Positions 22,592-38,916 of a stretch of DNA of 42,959 nucleotides are shown here, piece by piece. Numbering within the stretch: the first letter of the stretch is position 1; each line of letters opens with the position of its first letter. The notes under the pieces are model-generated. The model saw only the letters and a list, made by a program, of their open reading frames with translations. It made no database searches and was not told where the DNA came from. The translations under genes and the position numbers were made by a program. Source of the stretch: a virus (lineage: Duplodnaviria > Caudoviricetes); the IMG/VR virus record IMGVR_UViG_3300036817_000491, positions 1 through 42,959 of that record; one strand, written 5' to 3'.

Positions 22592-23079
22592 CAGTCCTCC
22601 TCTGGCTCGTCCTCCTCCGGTTCTGCGTCCAGAACGCGCTGCGCAATCTGGTCGCGAAGGTCATCAATAACACTTTGCACTCGACTTATAGCCGAAGGAC
22701 TCATGGCGCAGTCACGCTCCAGAATATCCGGCAACGTTTCCAGCACCTGCACCACAGCTTTTGCCATGACTGAAAATTCGCGGGCCACTTCATCAGCCGG
22801 GATTAACTGGCCGGTATCCTGTTCGAATTTGAGCCGCTCGTTTTCCGCTTTCCAGTGGGCGAGTCTGTCCGAAGGCGTCATATCTTCGGCGCTGGACGCA
22901 ACGACGGGTGCCATCAGTTCGGTCAGCACATCGGTGATGAGATAGAGTTTGAGTTTGTTGTTGCTGCCCAGCGCAGGCTCGAGTTGCTTAAGCCTGGCGG
23001 CAACGGTCTGGCGATGAACGCCGGTGATCCCTGCCAGCTGATTGATGTTCAGCTTCAGGGTGGAGAGTTCCTGGTCCAT
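22591..23079 (-). CDS. Terminase small subunit (Nu1/DUF1441-like)
   Basis: N-terminal wHTH LNINQLA.ITGVHRQTV; directly upstream of terL. Confidence 0.92.
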   Translation of the reverse strand: MDQELSTLKLNINQLAGITGVHRQTVAARLKQLEPALGSNNKLKLYLITDVLTELMAPVVASSAEDMTPSDRLAHWKAENERLKFEQDTGQLIPADEVAREFSVMAKAVVQVLETLPDILERDCAMSPSAISRVQSVIDDLRDQIAQRVLDAEPEEDEPEED

Positions 23080-23192
23080 GATGGTGAGCGCTTTTTGAAC
23101 GATTCGACATCATTGCAAAATGGTACTGATAAAAATCATACAGTTATGCACATGATGATGATGACCCTGGATCACGAAAACTAGCCGTTTTC

Positions 23193-23237
23193 CGCGTGCC
23201 CGCCGCCTCGTGGCAGGCCACCCCTCCGGGAGGACCC
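23193..23237 (-). other. cos site: cosQ-like GGGTCCT plus cosN-like 12-mer AGGCGGCGGGCA
   Basis: Minus strand GGGTCCT-N19-ACG^AGGCGGCGGGCA-CGCG parallels lambda GGGTCCT...ACG^GGGCGGCGACCT-CGCG; upstream of terS. Confidence 0.8.
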
Positions 23238-23242
23238 GCCGA

Positions 23243-23264
23243 AATGATAATTGATATCATTATC
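23243..23264. promoter_or_regulatory. Fur-box-like palindrome next to cosQ
   Basis: Minus strand GATAATGATATCAATTATC matches 16/19 positions of GATAATGATAATCATTATC. Confidence 0.45.
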
Positions 23265-23889
23265 TTTTATGGAGCAAGCCGCCGGGCTGCGTCGCGTTGC
23301 GAATGACATCATGAACAGCCGCTTTCAGACTGTCGATTGAAGCCACCTGTCCGCTCAACTCAGCACGCAGGGAGGCAAACAGATCGCTGTTACGCACAGC
23401 ATCTAACACCGCTTCACGCATGTCGTCTGAAAGCTCAATCTTGGTTGCAGTTGCCTGCGCCCGGAAAAGGCTGCCTTTAACTGAGAGCGTCCCGACAACA
23501 CTTCGCTTTTCGCTCTCGCTGTCATTTACACGGATGCTGTAAGTGCTGCTGGTGGTTGCGTTACCCAGCTTCTCACTTTGAATGATGCCAGGCTGAACAT
23601 GTGCATCATTGAGAACAGTTTCGCCCACCAGCTTTTTATCAGCTTTCTCTTTGCGCCCGGCCCGAATGAACTCGATCGCATCTTCAATCTCTTCAGGCGT
23701 AAACCCACCAGCAAACACGGTGTAACGACAACCCAGTAGGATAACGGGCACCTTACCTTCTGGGGATGCACCAAGGCTCTGCTCCCAGCAGTATTTGAAA
23801 TGGTCAAGTTGGTCAGCAATAGCGTTCTGCAAACGCAGGATATGGTCGAACGATAAGCCAGCTAAAGGCTCCGACTTTTGAATGTCCAT
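23260..23889 (-). CDS. Hypothetical phage protein
   Basis: 209 aa with AAGGA RBS; lies between lysis and cos. Confidence 0.7.
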   Translation of the reverse strand: MDIQKSEPLAGLSFDHILRLQNAIADQLDHFKYCWEQSLGASPEGKVPVILLGCRYTVFAGGFTPEEIEDAIEFIRAGRKEKADKKLVGETVLNDAHVQPGIIQSEKLGNATTSSTYSIRVNDSESEKRSVVGTLSVKGSLFRAQATATKIELSDDMREAVLDAVRNSDLFASLRAELSGQVASIDSLKAAVHDVIRNATQPGGLLHKR

Positions 23890-24045
23890 AGTTGTTTCCT
23901 TTTAGATGTGAGCCTGTCGTACGGGATAGCCGTTCGAGAGAAGCGGATCCCCAAGCTCACGACTGAAAGACTCTCTTCGAAGCGCGTACGATGCGCATAA
24001 AAAAGCCCCGCATAAGCGAGGCTGTATTTCATGGAGTGTCTGAGG

Positions 24046-24249
24046 CTATTCGTCTTTTTTAATCACGACTTCCTGCGGTCTCATCTGCTGTATTGCACGG
24101 CAGATGCAGTATGGAATTACTGCCCAAGCAACACCCATTGCTGCGCCAGCTGCCTGCTGAGGCGCGCTGACAGCGCCAAACACGCTAACAATACCCTCTA
24201 TAAAACCAATTACTCCGAATACGATACAAAGTGCCCAAAGGAATTTCAT
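24046..24249 (-). CDS. Small two-TM membrane protein (moron)
   Basis: MKFLWALCIVFGVIGF...; two hydrophobic helices; hairpin terminator at about 23999-24023. Confidence 0.7.
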   Translation of the reverse strand: MKFLWALCIVFGVIGFIEGIVSVFGAVSAPQQAAGAAMGVAWAVIPYCICRAIQQMRPQEVVIKKDE

Positions 24250-24436
24250 CAACCTAACTCCATTTAAAAAAGAGCTATTAGGATAAATCTGCAAACCATT
24301 TAGTAAAGCATTATCGCCTGCTGAAAATGCATGCCTACCGATAAACGTAGCTTATCCCCTACAGGGTATATTTTCGATTTAACCGCCAGAGGGGATATCC
24401 ATTACCAATCCCACCAGCAGATGGGCTTTGTAATGG

Positions 24437-24634
24437 CTAGCCGTCGAGTTGCAATACACCATGTTCCAGTGAGTCGGAGTATGCAATCAGTCCAGTATAT
24501 TCCGGGATAATCTCACCATCATCCGCTTCGAACTGCGGGATTGTCACAGTAGTGATGGTGTATTGTGGCTGGCCGTCTTCTTTAGCGAAGGCTGCCAGGT
24601 CCTCAATCTGTTTTGCTGTAAGAATTACTGTCAT
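24437..24634 (-). CDS. Hypothetical acidic small protein
   Basis: 65 aa with GAGG RBS. Confidence 0.7.
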   Translation of the reverse strand: MTVILTAKQIEDLAAFAKEDGQPQYTITTVTIPQFEADDGEIIPEYTGLIAYSDSLEHGVLQLDG

Positions 24635-24942
24635 GCTTATTCCTCGGTGTTTAAAAAGCCTCTCGATTTCGAGGCTAAGAATTCTCTATGCTTACAGTCC
24701 AGAAGAGAGACGGTGTAAGAGCCTCAGAGTTAAGGCTTTAATCAAGCATATGACCCTATATCAGGACGTTTGCTTTTATGTATTAAGAATCATCCTGGTG
24801 TTACCGCTTCCGCTTGTTAAATCAGAACCACGTACCATATTTATAACTCCCTGCAAGGCTCCTACCTACACCAGGGAATCCCATGGAACTATCTCATGAC
24901 CCGCATGAGCACACTCAGAAACATCTGTTCATAGCATGTGTT

Positions 24943-24969
24943 GCCCTCTCTCCAGGGGGCTTTTTTTTT
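24943..24969 (+). terminator. Intrinsic terminator (plus strand)
   Basis: GCCCTCT-CTCC-AGGGGGC followed by T9. Confidence 0.8.
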
Positions 24970-24972
24970 GCC

Positions 24973-25002
24973 AAAAAAAGACCAGCTCGGACAGAACTGG
25001 TC
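24973..25002 (-). terminator. Intrinsic terminator (minus strand)
   Basis: GACCAGTTC-TGTCC-GAGCTGGTC followed by T7. Confidence 0.8.
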
Positions 25003-25074
25003 AGGGTCATGCAGCAATGTAGATAGCTTTTGCACAAAGTTCGACGTTATGCCTGTTCCTTCAGTCTTCCCCTC

Positions 25075-25169
25075 AAACCCCGGGTGCCTCCCGGTGAGCT
25101 TACTCCAGTAAGCAAATTCGCATACGTCCAGCTTTTACTGGTTGCCCCACCGCTTAGGGGGATTGGCTT
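25075..25169 (-). ncRNA. Putative pseudoknotted structured RNA, copy 2
   Basis: Shares conserved blocks and co-varying stems with 26847-26940. Confidence 0.65.
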
Positions 25170-25480
25170 AAATGGCAAAGATGTCGAATCACTCATGCCC
25201 TTTGAATGTAGTTGATGGCGGAATTTTTAATGTGAGTTGTATAAAATTTTTTGCTTAGTCGGGCTAATAAATATTCGGTAGGTATTAGCCTACTCAGAAA
25301 AAAGCGTCATTTACGTTATTATTTTAATACTTCGGATTTTTGTTGAGTCATGCACTACATTGATATCCTCCTTGTAATGATGACCCCTTTGGTCTCCCTT
25401 TCGAACTGCAGGATTTCATTTCGGAAGGGATATTTTTTCAAAGCAAGTAAGGCCACCAGCAGATCAGCTTTGCCCGGTAT

Positions 25481-25720
25481 TCACTTCACAGCTTTATACC
25501 ATGCCTGCCAGCGGTACTTATCGAGGCGCAGCTGTCGTAAGCACTCTGCCGTCTCGATGTCAGCTTGCAGATCAGCATCGCTGTCAGCACCAGCATCACT
25601 TGCCTTGCATGGCTCCCGCATCAAATCCGCTGATGGAGTTGGCAGCGTCGATGGCACGTTGGCGCAGCCGGATAGACTCATCGTCAAAATCACAAACGGT
25701 ACGATTTGGATCTTGGACAT
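25481..25720 (-). CDS. o-spanin (Rz1-like lipoprotein)
   Basis: LSGC lipobox, Pro-rich segment, overlaps the 3' end of the i-spanin. Confidence 0.8.
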   Translation of the reverse strand: MSKIQIVPFVILTMSLSGCANVPSTLPTPSADLMREPCKASDAGADSDADLQADIETAECLRQLRLDKYRWQAWYKAVK

Positions 25721-25961
25721 ATTTCACCACGTCACGGGTTATGGTTCGGTAGATTACCCGGCCTTCGTCTCTGGCCTGAGCGGCCTTCAGTTCGACAGGC
25801 TGAATAGCTTTTTCTGCTTTGGCCCGCTTATCAGCAGCCAGCACGTTGATATGGTCGGCATGGGCGTACCAGCCATTCCGGTAACGTAGCTCGCCATAAC
25901 CACCTGCCAGCAGAACGGCTGCGAGAGTAATCAGCAGAATCGTTCGAAAGCTAAAGGTCAT
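25596..25961 (-). CDS. i-spanin (Rz-like)
   Basis: N-terminal TM helix followed by a helical periplasmic region; follows the endolysin. Confidence 0.8.
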   Translation of the reverse strand: MTFSFRTILLITLAAVLLAGGYGELRYRNGWYAHADHINVLAADKRAKAEKAIQPVELKAAQARDEGRVIYRTITRDVVKYVQDPNRTVCDFDDESIRLRQRAIDAANSISGFDAGAMQGK

Positions 25962-26454
25962 GTTTGCTCTCCGCCAGGCACATCGAGCGCTCCATCTCGC
26001 GCCGGTTCTGGAGGCCTTTCCATTTCATGCCACCAGCGTAAACCCAGCGGCGCATTTCTTCGCACGCACCGTCGTGATCACCTTTGTTCAGCTTGCGCAG
26101 AAGCGTGGACTTCGAGAACGCGTCAGAACCAACGTTAAAGACAAAGCTGTAAAGCGCGGCGCGCTGATACTCGCCCAGCGGCACCCTGACCAGATTGTCT
26201 ACCGTACGCTTGGCTGGCTGGAGATCTTTCCATAGCAGCTGGTCACATTCGCGATCGGTATACTTCTTACCTCTCAAGATATCCCGCCCCGTATGGCCGT
26301 CGCAGACAGTCCATACTCCGGCGACGTCTTTATAAGCTTCGTACTTTCGCCCTTCTACGCCATCCTGCCCACCGAGGAACAGCGAGGCAATCAGCATTGC
26401 GCCGCCACCAGCTGCGGCGATCAGTTTATTGCGAAGGCTGCTGGTCATTGGCAT
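25951..26454 (-). CDS. SAR endolysin (GH24 lysozyme)
   Basis: Ala/Gly-rich SAR helix, E-x8-D-x5-(H)T-like triad region (VEG...KDVAGVWTVCDGHTG), GLQNRR. Confidence 0.93.
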   Translation of the reverse strand: MPMTSSLRNKLIAAAGGGAMLIASLFLGGQDGVEGRKYEAYKDVAGVWTVCDGHTGRDILRGKKYTDRECDQLLWKDLQPAKRTVDNLVRVPLGEYQRAALYSFVFNVGSDAFSKSTLLRKLNKGDHDGACEEMRRWVYAGGMKWKGLQNRREMERSMCLAESKHDL

Positions 26455-26455
26455 A

Positions 26456-26695
26456 TCAGTCTTCTCCAACTTTCACAGCCGGGCCGTATTTCTCCAGCGC
26501 CTTAACCTGCGCATTAGCGACCTTGCGTTTGAAATACCAGTTAATCAGTCCTGTAACGATTATCCCGGCAATACCTGCCAGTACGCCGATGGCGCTCCAT
26601 TCGTCAGGACTCAGTTTTGTGAGGACGCCGTTCAGGATGGTTCCTCCTGAGGTGCCGAGGGCGACTCCGGTGACAAGTTTGCTCATACGGGACAT
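26456..26695 (-). CDS. Class II pinholin (phage 21 S-like) with dual start M-S-R-M
   Basis: Two TM segments, LSPDEW..IG and NWYFKRK; ATGs at 26695 and 26686; GAGG RBS. Confidence 0.88.
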   Translation of the reverse strand: MSRMSKLVTGVALGTSGGTILNGVLTKLSPDEWSAIGVLAGIAGIIVTGLINWYFKRKVANAQVKALEKYGPAVKVGED

Positions 26696-26797
26696 TTCTC
26701 TCACCTCGCTGTTCGCGGGTGTTATGTTTGAAGAATCAGGCTCTCCGGATGAATTAACGACAAGACCTTGATGGGGGTTTCCGGGAGCCTGAAATAG

Positions 26798-26822
26798 AAA
26801 AAGGCCGCCAATTGGCAGCCTT
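26798..26822 (-). terminator. Intrinsic terminator upstream of the holin
   Basis: GGCTGCC-AATT-GGCGGCC followed by TTTTT. Confidence 0.8.
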
Positions 26823-26846
26823 AGAAATAGATGATATTGAGGTTGT

Positions 26847-26940
26847 GGTGCCGGGTGCCTCCCGGTGACTCTGTGCCAGACCACAGACCCGCGTTACTCA
26901 CCTGCCTGTCTGGACGCCCCACCGCATAGGGGGATTCACC
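26847..26940 (-). ncRNA. Putative pseudoknotted structured RNA, copy 1
   Basis: Closing stem, two conserved hairpins, and a variable hairpin whose loop GTCTGG pairs with upstream CCAGAC. Confidence 0.65.
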
Positions 26941-27110
26941 ACCCGGGCACTCTACTTTGCTTACATCTTAAAAGATACATTAACTTACATGTTACTTAAT
27001 AATAAAAAACTCCGCCGGATGAAGCCATTGAATGAATGCGTGCCCCTGGGAGCGCGTCACATCGTCTGCTATCGTTGTTTTCCAATAACCATACAGACAA
27101 GGAGATTAAC

Positions 27111-27569
27111 GTGTCTGAATACCACAATCTTTTGCATGTAATCAGGTCTCGCGTGTGTGAAAACAGAAAAATGTCACACTCCGCTTATTACCCAGACAGC
27201 TTGCAGGACAATCAGATCAGGAACAGAACGGCGCTGATATACGTCCTTGAAATGCTTCTTCATAAGCACAGACAGAAATATGCCACTATTTTCAATCCAC
27301 TTGAGGGAAAGGCAGCTTTGTACCACCTCATCTTTATGAAAACAAAATGGCAACCTTCTGAGATCAGAAAACTGACTCTGGAGGATGCTCTGTTTGTTAT
27401 TCAGGATGAACTAAGAGTAGAAAATATCAGTGATGAAGCCCAGGAGGCTTTGAGTGCATTTAATCTGCCTTCAACAGCTTTTCTGTTTGACGATTTTCCA
27501 GAAGAGGACTGGGCCTATAGGGAAAACTCAACCTTCCTTCAAAGCCTGACCCTGAAAGCAGCTCAATAG
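27111..27569 (+). CDS. Phage-associated moron protein (ECs1072-like), antisense to late transcription
   Basis: GTG start with AAGGAG RBS; AT-rich; family name is from recollection only. Confidence 0.65.
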   Translation: MSEYHNLLHVIRSRVCENRKMSHSAYYPDSLQDNQIRNRTALIYVLEMLLHKHRQKYATIFNPLEGKAALYHLIFMKTKWQPSEIRKLTLEDALFVIQDELRVENISDEAQEALSAFNLPSTAFLFDDFPEEDWAYRENSTFLQSLTLKAAQ

Positions 27570-27729
27570 TTTTACTGACTTCTTCCAGCCGTTCCTCAAG
27601 AGCGGCTTTTTCTTCCACGAGACGGTTGAAATGAGCAAGGTGGGTTTTCTGCTGCCCAAGCCAGTCTTCCAATTGCTCAGCTGTCATGCCAGGGTTAAAA
27701 AAATACGGCTGCTGCTTACCGTCTTGCAT
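27460..27729 (-). CDS. Hypothetical coiled-coil protein, first ORF after tR'
   Basis: GGAGG RBS; 89 aa; 3' end overlaps the convergent gene by 110 nt. Confidence 0.65.
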   Translation of the reverse strand: MQDGKQQPYFFNPGMTAEQLEDWLGQQKTHLAHFNRLVEEKAALEERLEEVSKTIELLSGSGFEGRLSFPYRPSPLLENRQTEKLLKAD

Positions 27730-27748
27730 TGCAGACCTCCAGAAAAGG

Positions 27749-27773
27749 AAAAACCCCGCCGGAGCGAGGTTTT
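27749..27773 (-). terminator. tR'-like terminator
   Basis: AACCTCGC-TCCG-GCGGGGTT followed by a T-run, about 60 nt after the pR'-like promoter. Confidence 0.75.
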
Positions 27774-27837
27774 AGAATCTGTTTAATAAGGGCTTTTCGA
27801 CGCTGCCATCGCGGCGCAGCTCTGCCAAGCATGAATG

Positions 27838-27866
27838 AATTATTCATTTTTCTGGCCCGTTTTCAA
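27838..27866 (-). promoter_or_regulatory. Late promoter pR'-like
   Basis: TTGAAA-N16-AATAAT immediately downstream of the Q-position gene. Confidence 0.6.
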
Positions 27867-27901
27867 CTCCCTTTTAAAAATATTTAACAGACCTCTCACT
27901 T

Positions 27902-28510
27902 TTACCTGGTTTCTATCTGGCGGCGCACGGCCAGAAACACCTTCGCCTGGAATATCTCAAGGCACCAGCGCACGCGCTTACGCGCCTCTCCGGTGGTCAG
28001 CCAGGGAGCCACCAGCTGCAACTCTCTGGAGATATCGGATATCTTTTTGCGGGTGGTGTAAAACTGCAGACCGACCAGATAAACAGGATCCTCAGCACTG
28101 AAGGTTTTCAGCATGACCTGTTCGATAAAGTCAGCATCATCCCGGCGCTCACTCTCTTCAATCAGCTCATTCAGCGTCACCGGCCACAGGATAGCGCGTG
28201 CGCGTAATGCCGCCTGAACGCCACGGAATCCCTCTTCCCTTGCCTGCCCCAGCGCTTCTGTGATGCGCGACAGCTGAGCATCCGACCACTCCGATTGTTT
28301 CACCTCAGACCAGAACTGGCTGCAGTTCTCCAGGCGATATTGCGCCCGGGTTTTACCGCCTACACACTCCCCCCAGACGGTCAGCAAAGACTTAATCCAT
28401 GCAGACTGAACGCTCTTTAATGGAGTGAACTTTCCGAGGTAACTTTTTCTAGTTGCAGCTGCTGCTTTACCCAGACCTTCGACATGAATGCGGCGTTGAC
28501 GTGGTGTCAT
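27902..28510 (-). CDS. Putative late antiterminator (Q position)
   Basis: Last gene before pR'/tR'; C-terminal HTH-like segment; AAGGAG RBS. Function inferred from synteny. Confidence 0.6.
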   Translation of the reverse strand: MTPRQRRIHVEGLGKAAAATRKSYLGKFTPLKSVQSAWIKSLLTVWGECVGGKTRAQYRLENCSQFWSEVKQSEWSDAQLSRITEALGQAREEGFRGVQAALRARAILWPVTLNELIEESERRDDADFIEQVMLKTFSAEDPVYLVGLQFYTTRKKISDISRELQLVAPWLTTGEARKRVRWCLEIFQAKVFLAVRRQIETR

Positions 28511-28523
28511 CCTGTACTGCTCC

Positions 28524-29570
28524 TTAAGCCAGAACGCCGAGCGCAAAGGCCCGGTCCAGCACTCTGATTATCATTGCCGGCTGAGAAGAATGTTCTCTCT
28601 CGAATTTCACCGGGTCATTGTGTAGTTCGGTATGGTGTTTGCGACATAAGGGGATCGCGAAGATGTCGTGCGCCTTCGTTCCCATCCCTCCCTGTCCCCA
28701 GCCAATCAGGTGATGAGCATCATCTGACGGCATTCCGCAGCATTCGCACGGCTGCGTCTTTACCCATGCCAGATATTTTTCATCCATCCAGCGAATACGC
28801 TTTGGCCGCTTCATGAAAGTCTGTGGGGATTCGGGATCCACCAGCACGCCAACTACTGGCCTGATGGCTGGTGATGTTGCTGGCGCTGGTGGTTCGCTTG
28901 GAGGTGTTGTAGGTAACGCGCGGGCTTTGTCCGAAATAATGCTGGTGGCCGGTACTGACGGTACGATCTCGCTTTCGCGAAAGGTTTCTTTCGCTTCTGG
29001 TAGCCGCAAAGCCTCACGGGCAACTGACTCTGGTAACGCATCTGCAACGCCAGCACGTACAGCCCACCAGCACAGTTCAGCCAGAGAAATTTCGCGAGAC
29101 CGGTCGAGCGCCAGCGCAACCCGGGCGGAATCCAGCACCCAGTCGATTACGTTCTGGCGCGCCAGTTCCGCTAGGCGTTCGGTGTGCTGCTCGCGCAGCT
29201 GGTTGTCGCAGTGGCCGCAAAGGCGGATTGCGCCGGGAGCATGCCGCATGGTGGTCATTTCGTGGTAGTGGTAATCGCTGTGCGGGTACTGGCATGTGTC
29301 TCCACTGCGCATTAACCAGTATTCGAGGCCACTCAGCCCACCAGCAGCGGTGATCACCTTTTCGTGAAGGAAGAACGGGCGCAGTGCCGCATTACCGGCC
29401 AGCGGCTGGCGCGCATCGGGCACGCGGCCTGTAGCGAAGCTTGCCATGCTGGCGGGCTGGCTCTCCACCAGCACACGACCGCCACTGAACATGCTCATCA
29501 GCTCGCTGCCGGGCTTTAACAGCACAACGCCCATCTCCCGGGCAATTACTGGTTTCAGTAAGGCGCGCAT
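28524..29570 (-). CDS. DUF968-like protein with C-terminal zinc/HNH-like domain
   Basis: MRALLKP start; WVKTQPCECCG..DDAHH...PLCRKHH. Confidence 0.85.
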   Translation of the reverse strand: MRALLKPVIAREMGVVLLKPGSELMSMFSGGRVLVESQPASMASFATGRVPDARQPLAGNAALRPFFLHEKVITAAGGLSGLEYWLMRSGDTCQYPHSDYHYHEMTTMRHAPGAIRLCGHCDNQLREQHTERLAELARQNVIDWVLDSARVALALDRSREISLAELCWWAVRAGVADALPESVAREALRLPEAKETFRESEIVPSVPATSIISDKARALPTTPPSEPPAPATSPAIRPVVGVLVDPESPQTFMKRPKRIRWMDEKYLAWVKTQPCECCGMPSDDAHHLIGWGQGGMGTKAHDIFAIPLCRKHHTELHNDPVKFEREHSSQPAMIIRVLDRAFALGVLA

Positions 29571-34029: not shown

Positions 34030-34449
34030 TTAAGCCCTCCCCGCCTGGCGCAGGCATTCTTTACGCCGTTTGGCGATCCGGGCAACTTCGACAGCACTGC
34101 AGGCGATACCGAACATGTCCGAATACACCGCTGCGGCGCGGCGCCACAGTCCCTTTTCTTCCAGCGCCTTCGCTTTCTGTTCAGCGGCCTGCATCTTCAC
34201 CGGGTCGCTTTTCTCCTCCATGCACGGAAGGATCACATCCGGAATATCGGCGTGCGGTACCGCCGTATAGGTGTACTGGACGCTGTTACGGGATCGGGTT
34301 ATCACTCCATCGTCGCTCAGCTCGCGCAGCATTTTGCCTGCTGTAGCGCCTGACATATCCAACGCTTCGGAAACATCGCCGACGGCGCAGTTCGGTTGGT
34401 AGCGATCAAAAATCGCCACCTGGTCTTTCTGGGTTAATTGTTTGGTCAT
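34030..34449 (-). CDS. HTH plus PerC-like transcription regulator
   Basis: N-terminal wHTH and A..LEEKGLWRRAA PerC-like motif. Confidence 0.75.
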   Translation of the reverse strand: MTKQLTQKDQVAIFDRYQPNCAVGDVSEALDMSGATAGKMLRELSDDGVITRSRNSVQYTYTAVPHADIPDVILPCMEEKSDPVKMQAAEQKAKALEEKGLWRRAAAVYSDMFGIACSAVEVARIAKRRKECLRQAGRA

Positions 34450-34465
34450 TGGTCAAAACTCGATT
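34447..34465 (-). repeat. 19-nt early-operon motif AATCGAGTTTTGACCAATG, copy 1
   Basis: Exact match to the copies at 36060 and 38836. Confidence 0.9.
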
Positions 34466-36028: not shown

Positions 36029-36059
36029 ATCTCACCTCGCGGTTATTAGTCGGAGAACT

Positions 36060-36078
36060 CATTGGTCAAAACTCGATT
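36060..36078 (-). repeat. 19-nt early-operon motif, copy 2
   Basis: Exact AATCGAGTTTTGACCAATG directly after the cII-like stop. Confidence 0.9.
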
Positions 36079-36631
36079 ACGTAAAAAGTGGTGCCAGTGC
36101 CTGCAGGTGAGCGATCATCACCCCGGCAAGCTCACCGGGTAAAAGTGCTGCGTTAGCCAGGAGGTTCTCAAAGCCCTCCTTCGCTTGCTTCTTGCTCGGC
36201 AGGCCCAGCAGTTTTGCCTGATGGTGCTCGCCGCTCTCTTTTATCGCCTCAGCCACCAGCTCGATATCGGTTTTACCCTGACGGAGACCGTGTTTTCTGG
36301 CGATCTCAATCGGCATGGCGTTACCGATCGCGTTCGCGAGCTGCATGACATAGGCCGTGTATTTGCCGGAGTTGGTTTCGTTTTTCAGGTAGCGAAAAAG
36401 GTTCTGTTTGTTCACAGTGATCCCTCGCCCACCCTCCTTTGCCCAGTGTTCGGCCACCAGCTGCGTAACAACGTCCTGCGCCTGGCCCGGGATAGTTGCC
36501 TCCCACTCACGAACGGCAGACAGAATCGCGCGATGGCGTGTTGAGTCCCGGCGACGATGCTCAATCTGATTTCGGGTTTTCAGCGGAGCGGTGTTCTGCC
36601 GGTTAAGATGTTCAAACGTTACTGATTGCAT
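36077..36631 (-). CDS. CII-like regulator (YdaT family)
   Basis: Follows cro; AI..AVREW...GQ.Q..VTQLV; start MQSVTF with a GGAAGG RBS. Confidence 0.8.
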   Translation of the reverse strand: MQSVTFEHLNRQNTAPLKTRNQIEHRRRDSTRHRAILSAVREWEATIPGQAQDVVTQLVAEHWAKEGGRGITVNKQNLFRYLKNETNSGKYTAYVMQLANAIGNAMPIEIARKHGLRQGKTDIELVAEAIKESGEHHQAKLLGLPSKKQAKEGFENLLANAALLPGELAGVMIAHLQALAPLFT

Positions 36632-37753: not shown

Positions 37754-37932
37754 GCATGTTCTTCGCCTTAATCATTCCAGTCTGCGCCCTCACTGGGGAA
37801 TGCTCAGACATCATGCTCGGTCTCTATAAAACCGAAGCGATTTGTGAAGCAGTTGCCGCAGAGCAGCACGTGAAAGGACAGTGTTACCCGTACAAACCGG
37901 CTGACGACCAACAGCCAGCGTTACATTTTTAA
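37750..37932 (+). CDS. YebW/DUF1482-like small Cys-containing protein
   Basis: FALII.VC..TGEC.DI..G.Y.TE..C...C pattern. Confidence 0.75.
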   Translation: MSMFFALIIPVCALTGECSDIMLGLYKTEAICEAVAAEQHVKGQCYPYKPADDQQPALHF

Positions 37933-37949
37933 TCGAGTTTCGACCAATG
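37931..37949 (+). repeat. 19-nt early-operon motif, copy 3 (1 mismatch)
   Basis: AATCGAGTTTCGACCAATG. Confidence 0.88.
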
Positions 37950-38059
37950 GCTGTTACCAGCCTGATGCCAGGTGCACATGGCATCGCGATGGTAATCCCG
38001 CCATCACAACCAAACAGGAGACGAAGACCTGTTCTGGTTAAATTGGAAAAGTTCTCTTT

Positions 38060-38778: not shown

Positions 38779-38835
38779 GCACAAAACCCGCGCAAGGCGG
38801 GTTAAGTACCCGGTCAGCCGACCAAAGCTTTCCGG

Positions 38836-38854
38836 AATCGAGTTTTGACCAATG
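38836..38854 (+). repeat. 19-nt early-operon motif, copy 4
   Basis: Exact AATCGAGTTTTGACCAATG upstream of the exonuclease gene. Confidence 0.9.
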
Positions 38855-38916
38855 ACCACTACCCAAGGCGGCGATCATCAGCTGTTGGGTATCTTACACC
38901 CAAATGAGGCTCCAAG

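Follow-up and report, generated by a model that had tools for sequence, protein, structure and literature searches.

Two diverged copies of an RNA of about 95 nucleotides (nt) bracket the lysis genes in the stretch of DNA analysed here (the window, 42,959 nt; IMG/VR virus record IMGVR_UViG_3300036817_000491, Caudoviricetes), which raises the question of what this RNA is and whether its position reflects a role in lysis. The window corresponds to a lambdoid phage genome with most of its genes on the minus strand, among them a Q-like gene, a holin, an endolysin and two spanins followed by the terminase. An original prediction, made from the letters alone, described the copies as a compact tertiary-folded phage RNA family that could not be assigned to a named family and was tied to lysis timing or lysogen function. 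Both repeats are members of the catalogued prophage small-RNA family STnc100 (Rfam RF02076), the core of which has no assigned function; the description as a pseudoknotted minus-strand RNA holds, and the family does have a name.

The core of copy 1 (26845..26942; all coordinates of the RNAs and of the lysis genes are on the minus strand) matches RF02076 with 78.7 bits over model positions 1-206, above the gathering cut-off of 47. The core of copy 2 (25072..25172), which has the same architecture, scores 43.3 bits (E-value 4.4e-7) over model positions 38-140 only and is a homologue of the STnc100 core that formally falls short of the 47-bit cut-off. A covariance model built for this work, with both copies in its training alignment, gives 89.5 bits for copy 1 and 81.0 bits for copy 2. 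The two conserved GC-rich hairpins within a closing stem that characterize STnc100 are present exactly in both copies, and both have the intrinsic terminator at the 3' end. A comparison with Rfam had been named as the check on novelty, and the RF02076 matches remove that novelty. The two sequence blocks that had been reported as shared between 26847-26940 and 25075-25169 each occur exactly twice in the window when up to three mismatches are allowed (block 1 at 26916-26936 and 25144-25164, block 2 at 26851-26867 and 25080-25096), the means expected by chance being 0.00 and 0.14, and no further copy in the window was found with our model at E-values up to 1. A third Rfam match, at 23993-24079, covers a terminator only and is not another core.

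The STnc100 core is a five-way junction in which the stretch originally taken for a linker is the loop of a helix of 3 base pairs (bp), P3, that kisses the loop of P4. In copy 1, P1 (26942-26937/26850-26845) leads through J1/2 (26936-26934) into P2 (26933-26918, with one bulge), followed by P3 (26917-26915/26893-26891), P4 (26890-26867), a single A (26866) and P5 (26865-26851); the kissing strand in the P3 loop (26908..26913) pairs with the P4 loop (26881-26876) over 6 bp. The corresponding elements of copy 2 are P1 (25172-25165/25079-25072), J1/2 (25164-25162), P2 (25161-25146), P3 (25145-25143/25122-25120), P4 (25119-25096), a single A (25095) and P5 (25094-25080), with a kissing strand (25136..25141) that pairs with the P4 loop (25110-25105), again over 6 bp. 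The predicted complementarity (GTCTGG:CCAGAC and TACTGG:CCAGTA) is thus exact in both copies and co-varies across the family, but the pseudoknot takes the form of a loop–loop pairing. The closing stems that had been proposed (GGTG/CACC and AAGCC/GGTTT) are present but longer, with 6 bp in copy 1 and 8 bp in copy 2, and the mismatch noted at the same position of the variable hairpin is real in both copies but is not a conserved feature, P4 pair 3 being formed in 36 of 38 cluster representatives.

The folding energy of the single sequences is unremarkable (z-scores of +0.48 and -1.02, with both strands between -1.5 and +0.5), and the case for the fold therefore rests on covariation. A five-way junction could be parsed in 129 of 133 distinct cores, the exceptions being a single match from Streptomyces and three variants that lack P4. 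The kissing interaction was examined without an alignment in 38 clusters (70% clustering, which lowers but does not remove relatedness), by finding how long a pairing the initial 11 nt of the P3 loop can form with the middle of the P4 hairpin: own pairs average 5.34 Watson–Crick bp compared with 3.25 for swapped pairs, and none of 20,000 permutations attains the observed value. The result also holds at 80% and 60% clustering (41 and 26 clusters), and the distal part of the P3 loop, used as a control, gives no signal (3.79 for own and 3.92 for swapped pairs). Fewer than five Watson–Crick kissing pairs are formed in 11 of the 38 representatives, and the third pair of P3 is Watson–Crick in 32 of them, with all four types used. 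In a MAFFT alignment of 40 sequences that was not fitted to the structure, 84.0% of cells pair, compared with 70.9% after shuffling and 38-46% when the strands are slid; all six kissing pairs change on both sides in this alignment, and 69.7% of the kissing cells are paired (register shifts). Pairs in P2, P3 and P5 also flip among 177 distinct cores, this being the set that could be parsed, with 15 further matches failing to parse. The helices of these cores hold 286 G-U compared with 44 A-C cells on the minus strand, in agreement with the predicted strand, although the parser scores G-U as a pair and so introduces some bias. Covariation in homologues, the absence of which had been put forward as grounds for abandoning a functional RNA, is therefore present.

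The Rfam consensus has P1, P2, P4 and P5 in common with both copies, the terminator in common with copy 1 and, as its position, the moron slot after Q. It differs in lacking both the pseudoknot and P3, the 3-bp closing helix of the kissing loop, in taking in about 30 nt of likely promoter, and in missing, at its cut-off, copy 2 and a sub-family found before kil and dicB. The family is common: a pattern scan returned 124 viral loci (about 1400 stretches estimated) and 66 genome loci, of which 62 carry enterobacterial titles and four do not. The Streptomyces match fails to adopt the fold and is likely to be a chance hit. A BLAST search with copy 1 found relatives in 2568 of 5426 complete Escherichia coli genomes, and our model has matches in at least three of 151 genomes in a sample of the order and in at least 21 of 151 in a sample of the family, these being lower bounds with at most 25 candidates scored per genome and with the centre genome included.

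Wider relatives, found with our model of the nested structure, include this second sub-family, which has three P2 pairs flipped relative to window-type cores and in which unrelated long P1 extensions recur. All seven of the sub-family loci given (L199, L204, L221, L230 and L236-L238) are missed by Rfam at its cut-off. Members of this sub-family occupy early-left operons, where they follow cI in ST64B and SfIV and precede kil in phiES15, and two unannotated copies found with our model are present in E. coli K-12: one in the Qin prophage between DicF and dicB (NC_000913.3 1649454-1649581; L242:454-581) and one in Rac before kilR (NC_000913.3 1418262-1418390; L243:262-390). The K-12 copies share the five helices, J1/2 and the loops of the window copies and have a 7-bp kiss; they differ in the three flipped P2 pairs and in having no terminator tail. 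The Qin-type P1 is about 21 bp long and is cut by RNase III, compared with 6 and 8 bp in the window. Tables S3 and S5 of PMC6212723 list RNase III-dependent 5' ends in K-12 at 1649454 (adjusted P-value 1e-10) and 1649584 (adjusted P-value 1e-4). These cuts lie 130 nt apart with a 2-nt offset and flank the Qin core, the piece between them being the whole core with a 9-bp P1; the base-exact agreement depends partly on the flank of our own model. The 72-nt DicF end cited in the text of PMC5069750 coincides with this site. At locus L199 (L199:1501-1905) the sub-family core is directly upstream of Rfam matches to isrK and C4.

Behind the cores, the two predicted intrinsic terminators are present, beginning 22 nt (copy 1) and 69 nt (copy 2) downstream. 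Copy 1 has a 22-nt tail rich in A, U and C and a terminator (stem 26822-26801 plus a U-tract; tail and terminator together 26791..26844) that lies between the RNA and the holin gene and inside the Rfam match. Copy 2 has a tail of about 70 nt that is kept in its sub-family, followed by its terminator (stem 25002-24980 plus a U-tract; together 24973..25071). Across the family a terminator lies within 130 nt of the core in 88 of 167 distinct units, with gaps of 12-80 nt, and by a strict rule there is none in the other 79. The AT-rich promoter-like stretch that had been described before each copy is reduced to a likely -10 box at copy 1 (26949..26954), which matches at four of six positions, has no good -35 element and ends 12 nt before J1/2; copy 2 has none, and a promoter scan called no σ70 site directly upstream of either copy. 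The 12-nt spacing is the commonest in the family (35 of 161 distinct upstream regions; the next, with 19, is at an unrelated distance), and transcription from the copy 1 box would be likely to begin with the initial base of P1. In a consensus fold of ten sequences, part of the conserved 5' flank of copy 2 (25173..25215) could pair with the tail (25188-25183 with 25045-25040); the outer stem is almost invariant and lacks covariation, one of its ten pairs changing on both sides, and copy 2 could be part of a longer precursor through this stem.

Relatives are expressed. Eleven STnc100 copies have reads in lysogens of enterohaemorrhagic E. coli EDL933, one of them shown by Northern blot (PMC5331693). 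STnc100 overlaps EcOnc27/sRNA103 of E. coli O157 Stx2 phages in the texts of PMC12711010 and PMC7873438, and PasD1 and PasD2 of enteropathogenic E. coli E2348/69 (PMC8550237) are related to STnc100 in the text of bioRxiv 10.64898/2026.05.13.724894. PasD1 (1060260-1060432, 173 nt; Table S6 of PMC8550237) starts at P1 behind clear -35 and -10 boxes, lies upstream of a holin gene and runs in the order core, tail, terminator. It shares P1, P3 and P4 with the window copies and retains the kiss, with 7 bp rather than 6; the conserved P2 loop and P5, both of which are kept in the window, are gone from it, and its score is 28.9 bits. The sequence complementary to its target motif is found in the tail, 37 nt beyond the core and just before the terminator; this seed motif is absent from both window tails. 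The 5' end of the core is thus placed at P1 by two routes, the mapped start of PasD1 and the K-12 RNase III cut. PasD is thus a degenerate branch of the family. Since its seed lies outside the core and the K-12 sub-family is bracketed by RNase III cuts, core and tail appear to be two separate modules.

The proposed tie to lysis timing is not borne out by the genomic context. The cassette between the two RNAs (25481..26695) comprises the holin (26456-26695, of the P21 type, Pfam PF04971), the endolysin (25951-26457) and the spanins (25596-25961 and 25481-25720), all assigned from PHROGs. Lysis genes were found within 1.5 kb in 13 of 47 genome loci, with Q alone in three more (114 of 242 open reading frames scanned), and the genes downstream of cores (holin, kil, dicB, tRNA, esterase and host-type genes) have no common function. 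A lysis-specific role was rejected on this context, which includes early-left operons, arrays, a transfer RNA (tRNA) operon and host-type neighbourhoods. The slot after the late promoter has been described as a moron site carrying small-RNA genes (Tree et al., 2014, PMC4104026), and because relatives sit in such varied contexts the bracketing is best taken to mean that the intergenic slots flanking the lysis genes are both filled. That the window copies act as a lysis timer is not supported on present evidence. Among the functions put forward originally, that of a protein decoy has become the leading reading and a riboswitch platform was sought and not found.

Tandem arrays of cores are also found, in which some neighbours are separated by no more than 8-40 nt. 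Up to six diverged cores are arrayed beside a Q-like gene at L231 (4950-5990 and 15116-16487, in a record titled Pantoea sp. App145 plasmid), L147, L155 and L151; some of their cores have altered P2 and P5 loops, and the L231 genome has 12 model matches. At L160:1491-1752 and L170:450-790 a gap of 4 nt separates the core from a tRNA-Met(CAT)/Thr/Gly run that follows it, so that the core resembles the opening member of a tRNA operon. Five loci in Kosakonia/Enterobacter-type genomes (L139, L157, L171, L177 and L181) have intact cores with clear σ70 boxes beside a peptidase M3 gene, and these look like a copy kept by the host.

The reading that is tentatively favoured, with confidence approaching an even balance, is that the core, an RNA of about the size of a tRNA, works on its own by binding a host protein with its conserved loops, the tail being a second, Hfq-seed module. 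Copy 1 would have its own promoter and give, also in the lysogen, a transcript of about 150 nt that begins with P1 at its initial base and ends at the terminator, and Q-modified late transcription would read through both terminators. The kissing pair would act as a strut holding the fold and the P2 and P5 loops would form the working face, through which the released or trimmed core may sequester or modulate an RNA-binding protein of the host; in some lineages the tail ahead of the terminator would have been put to secondary use as an Hfq seed. Sequence conservation is confined to J1/2, the loops of P2 and P5 and one A in the junction, and this placement of the fixed letters suggests a binding face or a second tertiary contact. 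In the kiss the pairing is kept while the sequence changes, and a longer P3 can stand in for it, suggesting a strut: in natural variants (L128, L145, L163 and L178) P4 has shrunk to a mini-hairpin and the kiss is gone, with a longer P3 and with P1, P2 and P5 intact. The core is the conserved unit: the likeness of copy 1 to its relatives ends at 26843-26942, and flanks, neighbours and the mode of end formation vary. Its persistence among host-type genes, the tandem arrays and the variants that keep P1, P2 and P5 also favour this reading.

Several observations qualify this reading or weigh against it. The unpaired letters, nearly constant in the 177 distinct cores (AAU in J1/2 in 166, the junction A in 173 and AGGCA in the P5 loop in 170), speak for it, but these counts are inflated, the first patterns having fixed P2 and P5; an unbiased check, which also speaks for it, is available for P5 only, in that 113 of 117 sub-family members found by the 5' half alone carry the same P5 loop (the sub-family so found has a 7-bp kiss in nearly all members). 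No compensatory change between the P2 and P5 loops was found, both loops changing together in PasD1 and in five divergent array rows, and the conserved loops could serve folding alone. For the Rac copy, the data of PMC6212723 that cover this site contain only a 3' RNase III cut, just 3' of the core. No match to the P5 motif is present in 11 supplement files of PMC3175480, so that the Qin piece is absent from the small RNAs of that deep-sequencing study in the files covered; the dicBF operon is largely repressed, which tempers this negative. Among 24 RNA sequencing runs none shared as much as half of the sequence words, and the four compared in detail contained only contigs of relatives, mostly less than 95% alike, and so gave no start, end, strand or level for a transcript of this phage. 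Finally, the only functional data on relatives, those for PasD1, point to Hfq base-pairing through the tail.

This last point leads to the main alternative, possible but rather doubtful, in which the core is a 5' scaffold that protects the RNA behind it from RNase E, while function resides in the tail, which binds Hfq and pairs with host messenger RNAs, as in PasD and EcOnc27. PasD1 lends it real support: it is Hfq-dependent (PMC8550237), its seed follows the core and precedes the terminator, and it keeps its kiss despite the loss of the P2 and P5 loops; terminators close behind the core in about half of the units, and the conserved tail of copy 2, fit the same picture. Pseudoknots hinder scanning by RNase E. 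A plain 5' hairpin suffices for protection, however, which would leave the invariant loops unexplained, and in Qin the core is taken off on both sides by RNase III and so cannot shield the RNA behind it. The units without a terminator, and arrays with none between some cores, also argue against a scaffold for a tail.

The remaining alternatives are less well matched to these data. The order promoter, core, terminator, holin at copy 1, the order core, terminator, kil in phiES15 and the position of cores just before dicB and kilR could indicate that the core acts in cis on transcription, as a riboswitch, attenuator or put-like antiterminator governing read-through into toxic genes and in this way affecting lysis timing. 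Pairing of cores with their own terminators is no stronger than with swapped ones (in a set of 39 distinct arms, 967 and 2258 of 5000 permutations reached the observed strength), a comparison that does not extend to antitermination mediated by protein or polymerase; the core–terminator gaps vary, the downstream genes have no function in common, copy 2 sits after the lysis genes and no riboswitch family was matched, making control in cis improbable. Assignment to riboswitches or attenuators was rejected, there being neither own-terminator pairing nor a single functional class downstream. Small ribozymes show tight junctions and pseudoknots, and the core has both, together with few conserved unpaired letters and tandem arrays; that it is a self-cleaving or other ribozyme processing phage transcripts is nevertheless very improbable, with no match to a ribozyme family at E-values up to 5 in 23000-29000, with the known ends accounted for by promoter, terminator or RNase III and with variants in existence that lack P4 and the kiss. 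Likenesses to SAM-IV, FMN, cobalamin and pistol RNAs were considered and dropped, no such family being matched. The distal P3 loop differs widely in length and sequence and could be the variable pairing site of a C4-like antisense scaffold directed at the phage itself, but the longest complementary sites for the loops and tails of both copies, searched in the window and not among host targets, are 9-10 nt, as for shuffled queries, and this reading has hardly any probability.

The core bears a topological likeness to the class II tRNA cloverleaf. Both have a five-way junction, and P5 runs straight into P1 over 11-14 bp as the T arm does into the acceptor stem; two relatives are found directly before tRNA operons. 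The likeness is one of topology only: the P5 loop has 5 nt and is not T-loop-like, and the loop at the anticodon position has at least 18 nt and is engaged in the kiss. Membership among the tRNAs was rejected, there being no ARAGORN or Rfam tRNA match and neither a 7-nt T loop nor an anticodon loop. A bolder proposal, which on balance is unlikely, is that the STnc100 core, rather than being an ordinary base-pairing small RNA, is a widespread tRNA-shaped decoy of enterobacterial prophages. Made from its own promoter or excised by RNase III, amplified in arrays and retained by some hosts, it would use its fixed two-loop face to block an enzyme of the host that binds RNA or recognises tRNA, for example a defence nuclease.

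Upstream of copy 1, the window holds the Q-like antiterminator (27902..28546, minus strand; phrog_753, E-value 8e-55) and, just after it, a likely late promoter (27866-27839, 10 of 12 positions) with its terminator (27773-27750; together 27750..27866), the roles of which would follow from lambdoid biology. Between this promoter and copy 1 there are two convergent overlapping open reading frames, 27036-27569 (plus strand, phrog_5286) and 27460-27729 (minus strand, phrog_3501); phrog_5286 also occurs upstream of a core in another locus (L136). A plus-strand terminator (24943-24960) stands back to back with that of copy 2 (window 24943-25002). In the early regions, a repeat of 20-27 nt is found at 34443-34465, 36059-36085, 37931-37958 and 38829-38863, in mirror orientation to the left and right of the repressor, and possibly represents operator, recombination or antitermination sites.

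The window copies are ordinary members of a common family, and the value lies in the family, in that its fold and its division into core and tail go beyond the catalogue. The word `pseudoknot' does not occur in the text of bioRxiv 10.64898/2026.05.13.724894, the supplements and alignment figures of which may bear on structure and lie outside this scope. Neither a pseudoknot in STnc100 nor a link to the dicF–dicB spacer is described in the searched text of PMC12370729, PMC10794520, PMC7873438, PMC10798246, PMC8175672, bioRxiv 10.1101/2023.04.14.536235, PMC12711010, PMC8550237, PMC3175480 or PMC6212723, a scope that leaves aside subscription papers and figures. STnc100 has been treated in print as an Hfq-binding small RNA with a nested fold; the present analysis adds a co-varying kissing interaction, fixed loops and a sister sub-family bracketed by RNase III cuts. 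The two unannotated copies in K-12 make the function of the core testable in a laboratory strain.

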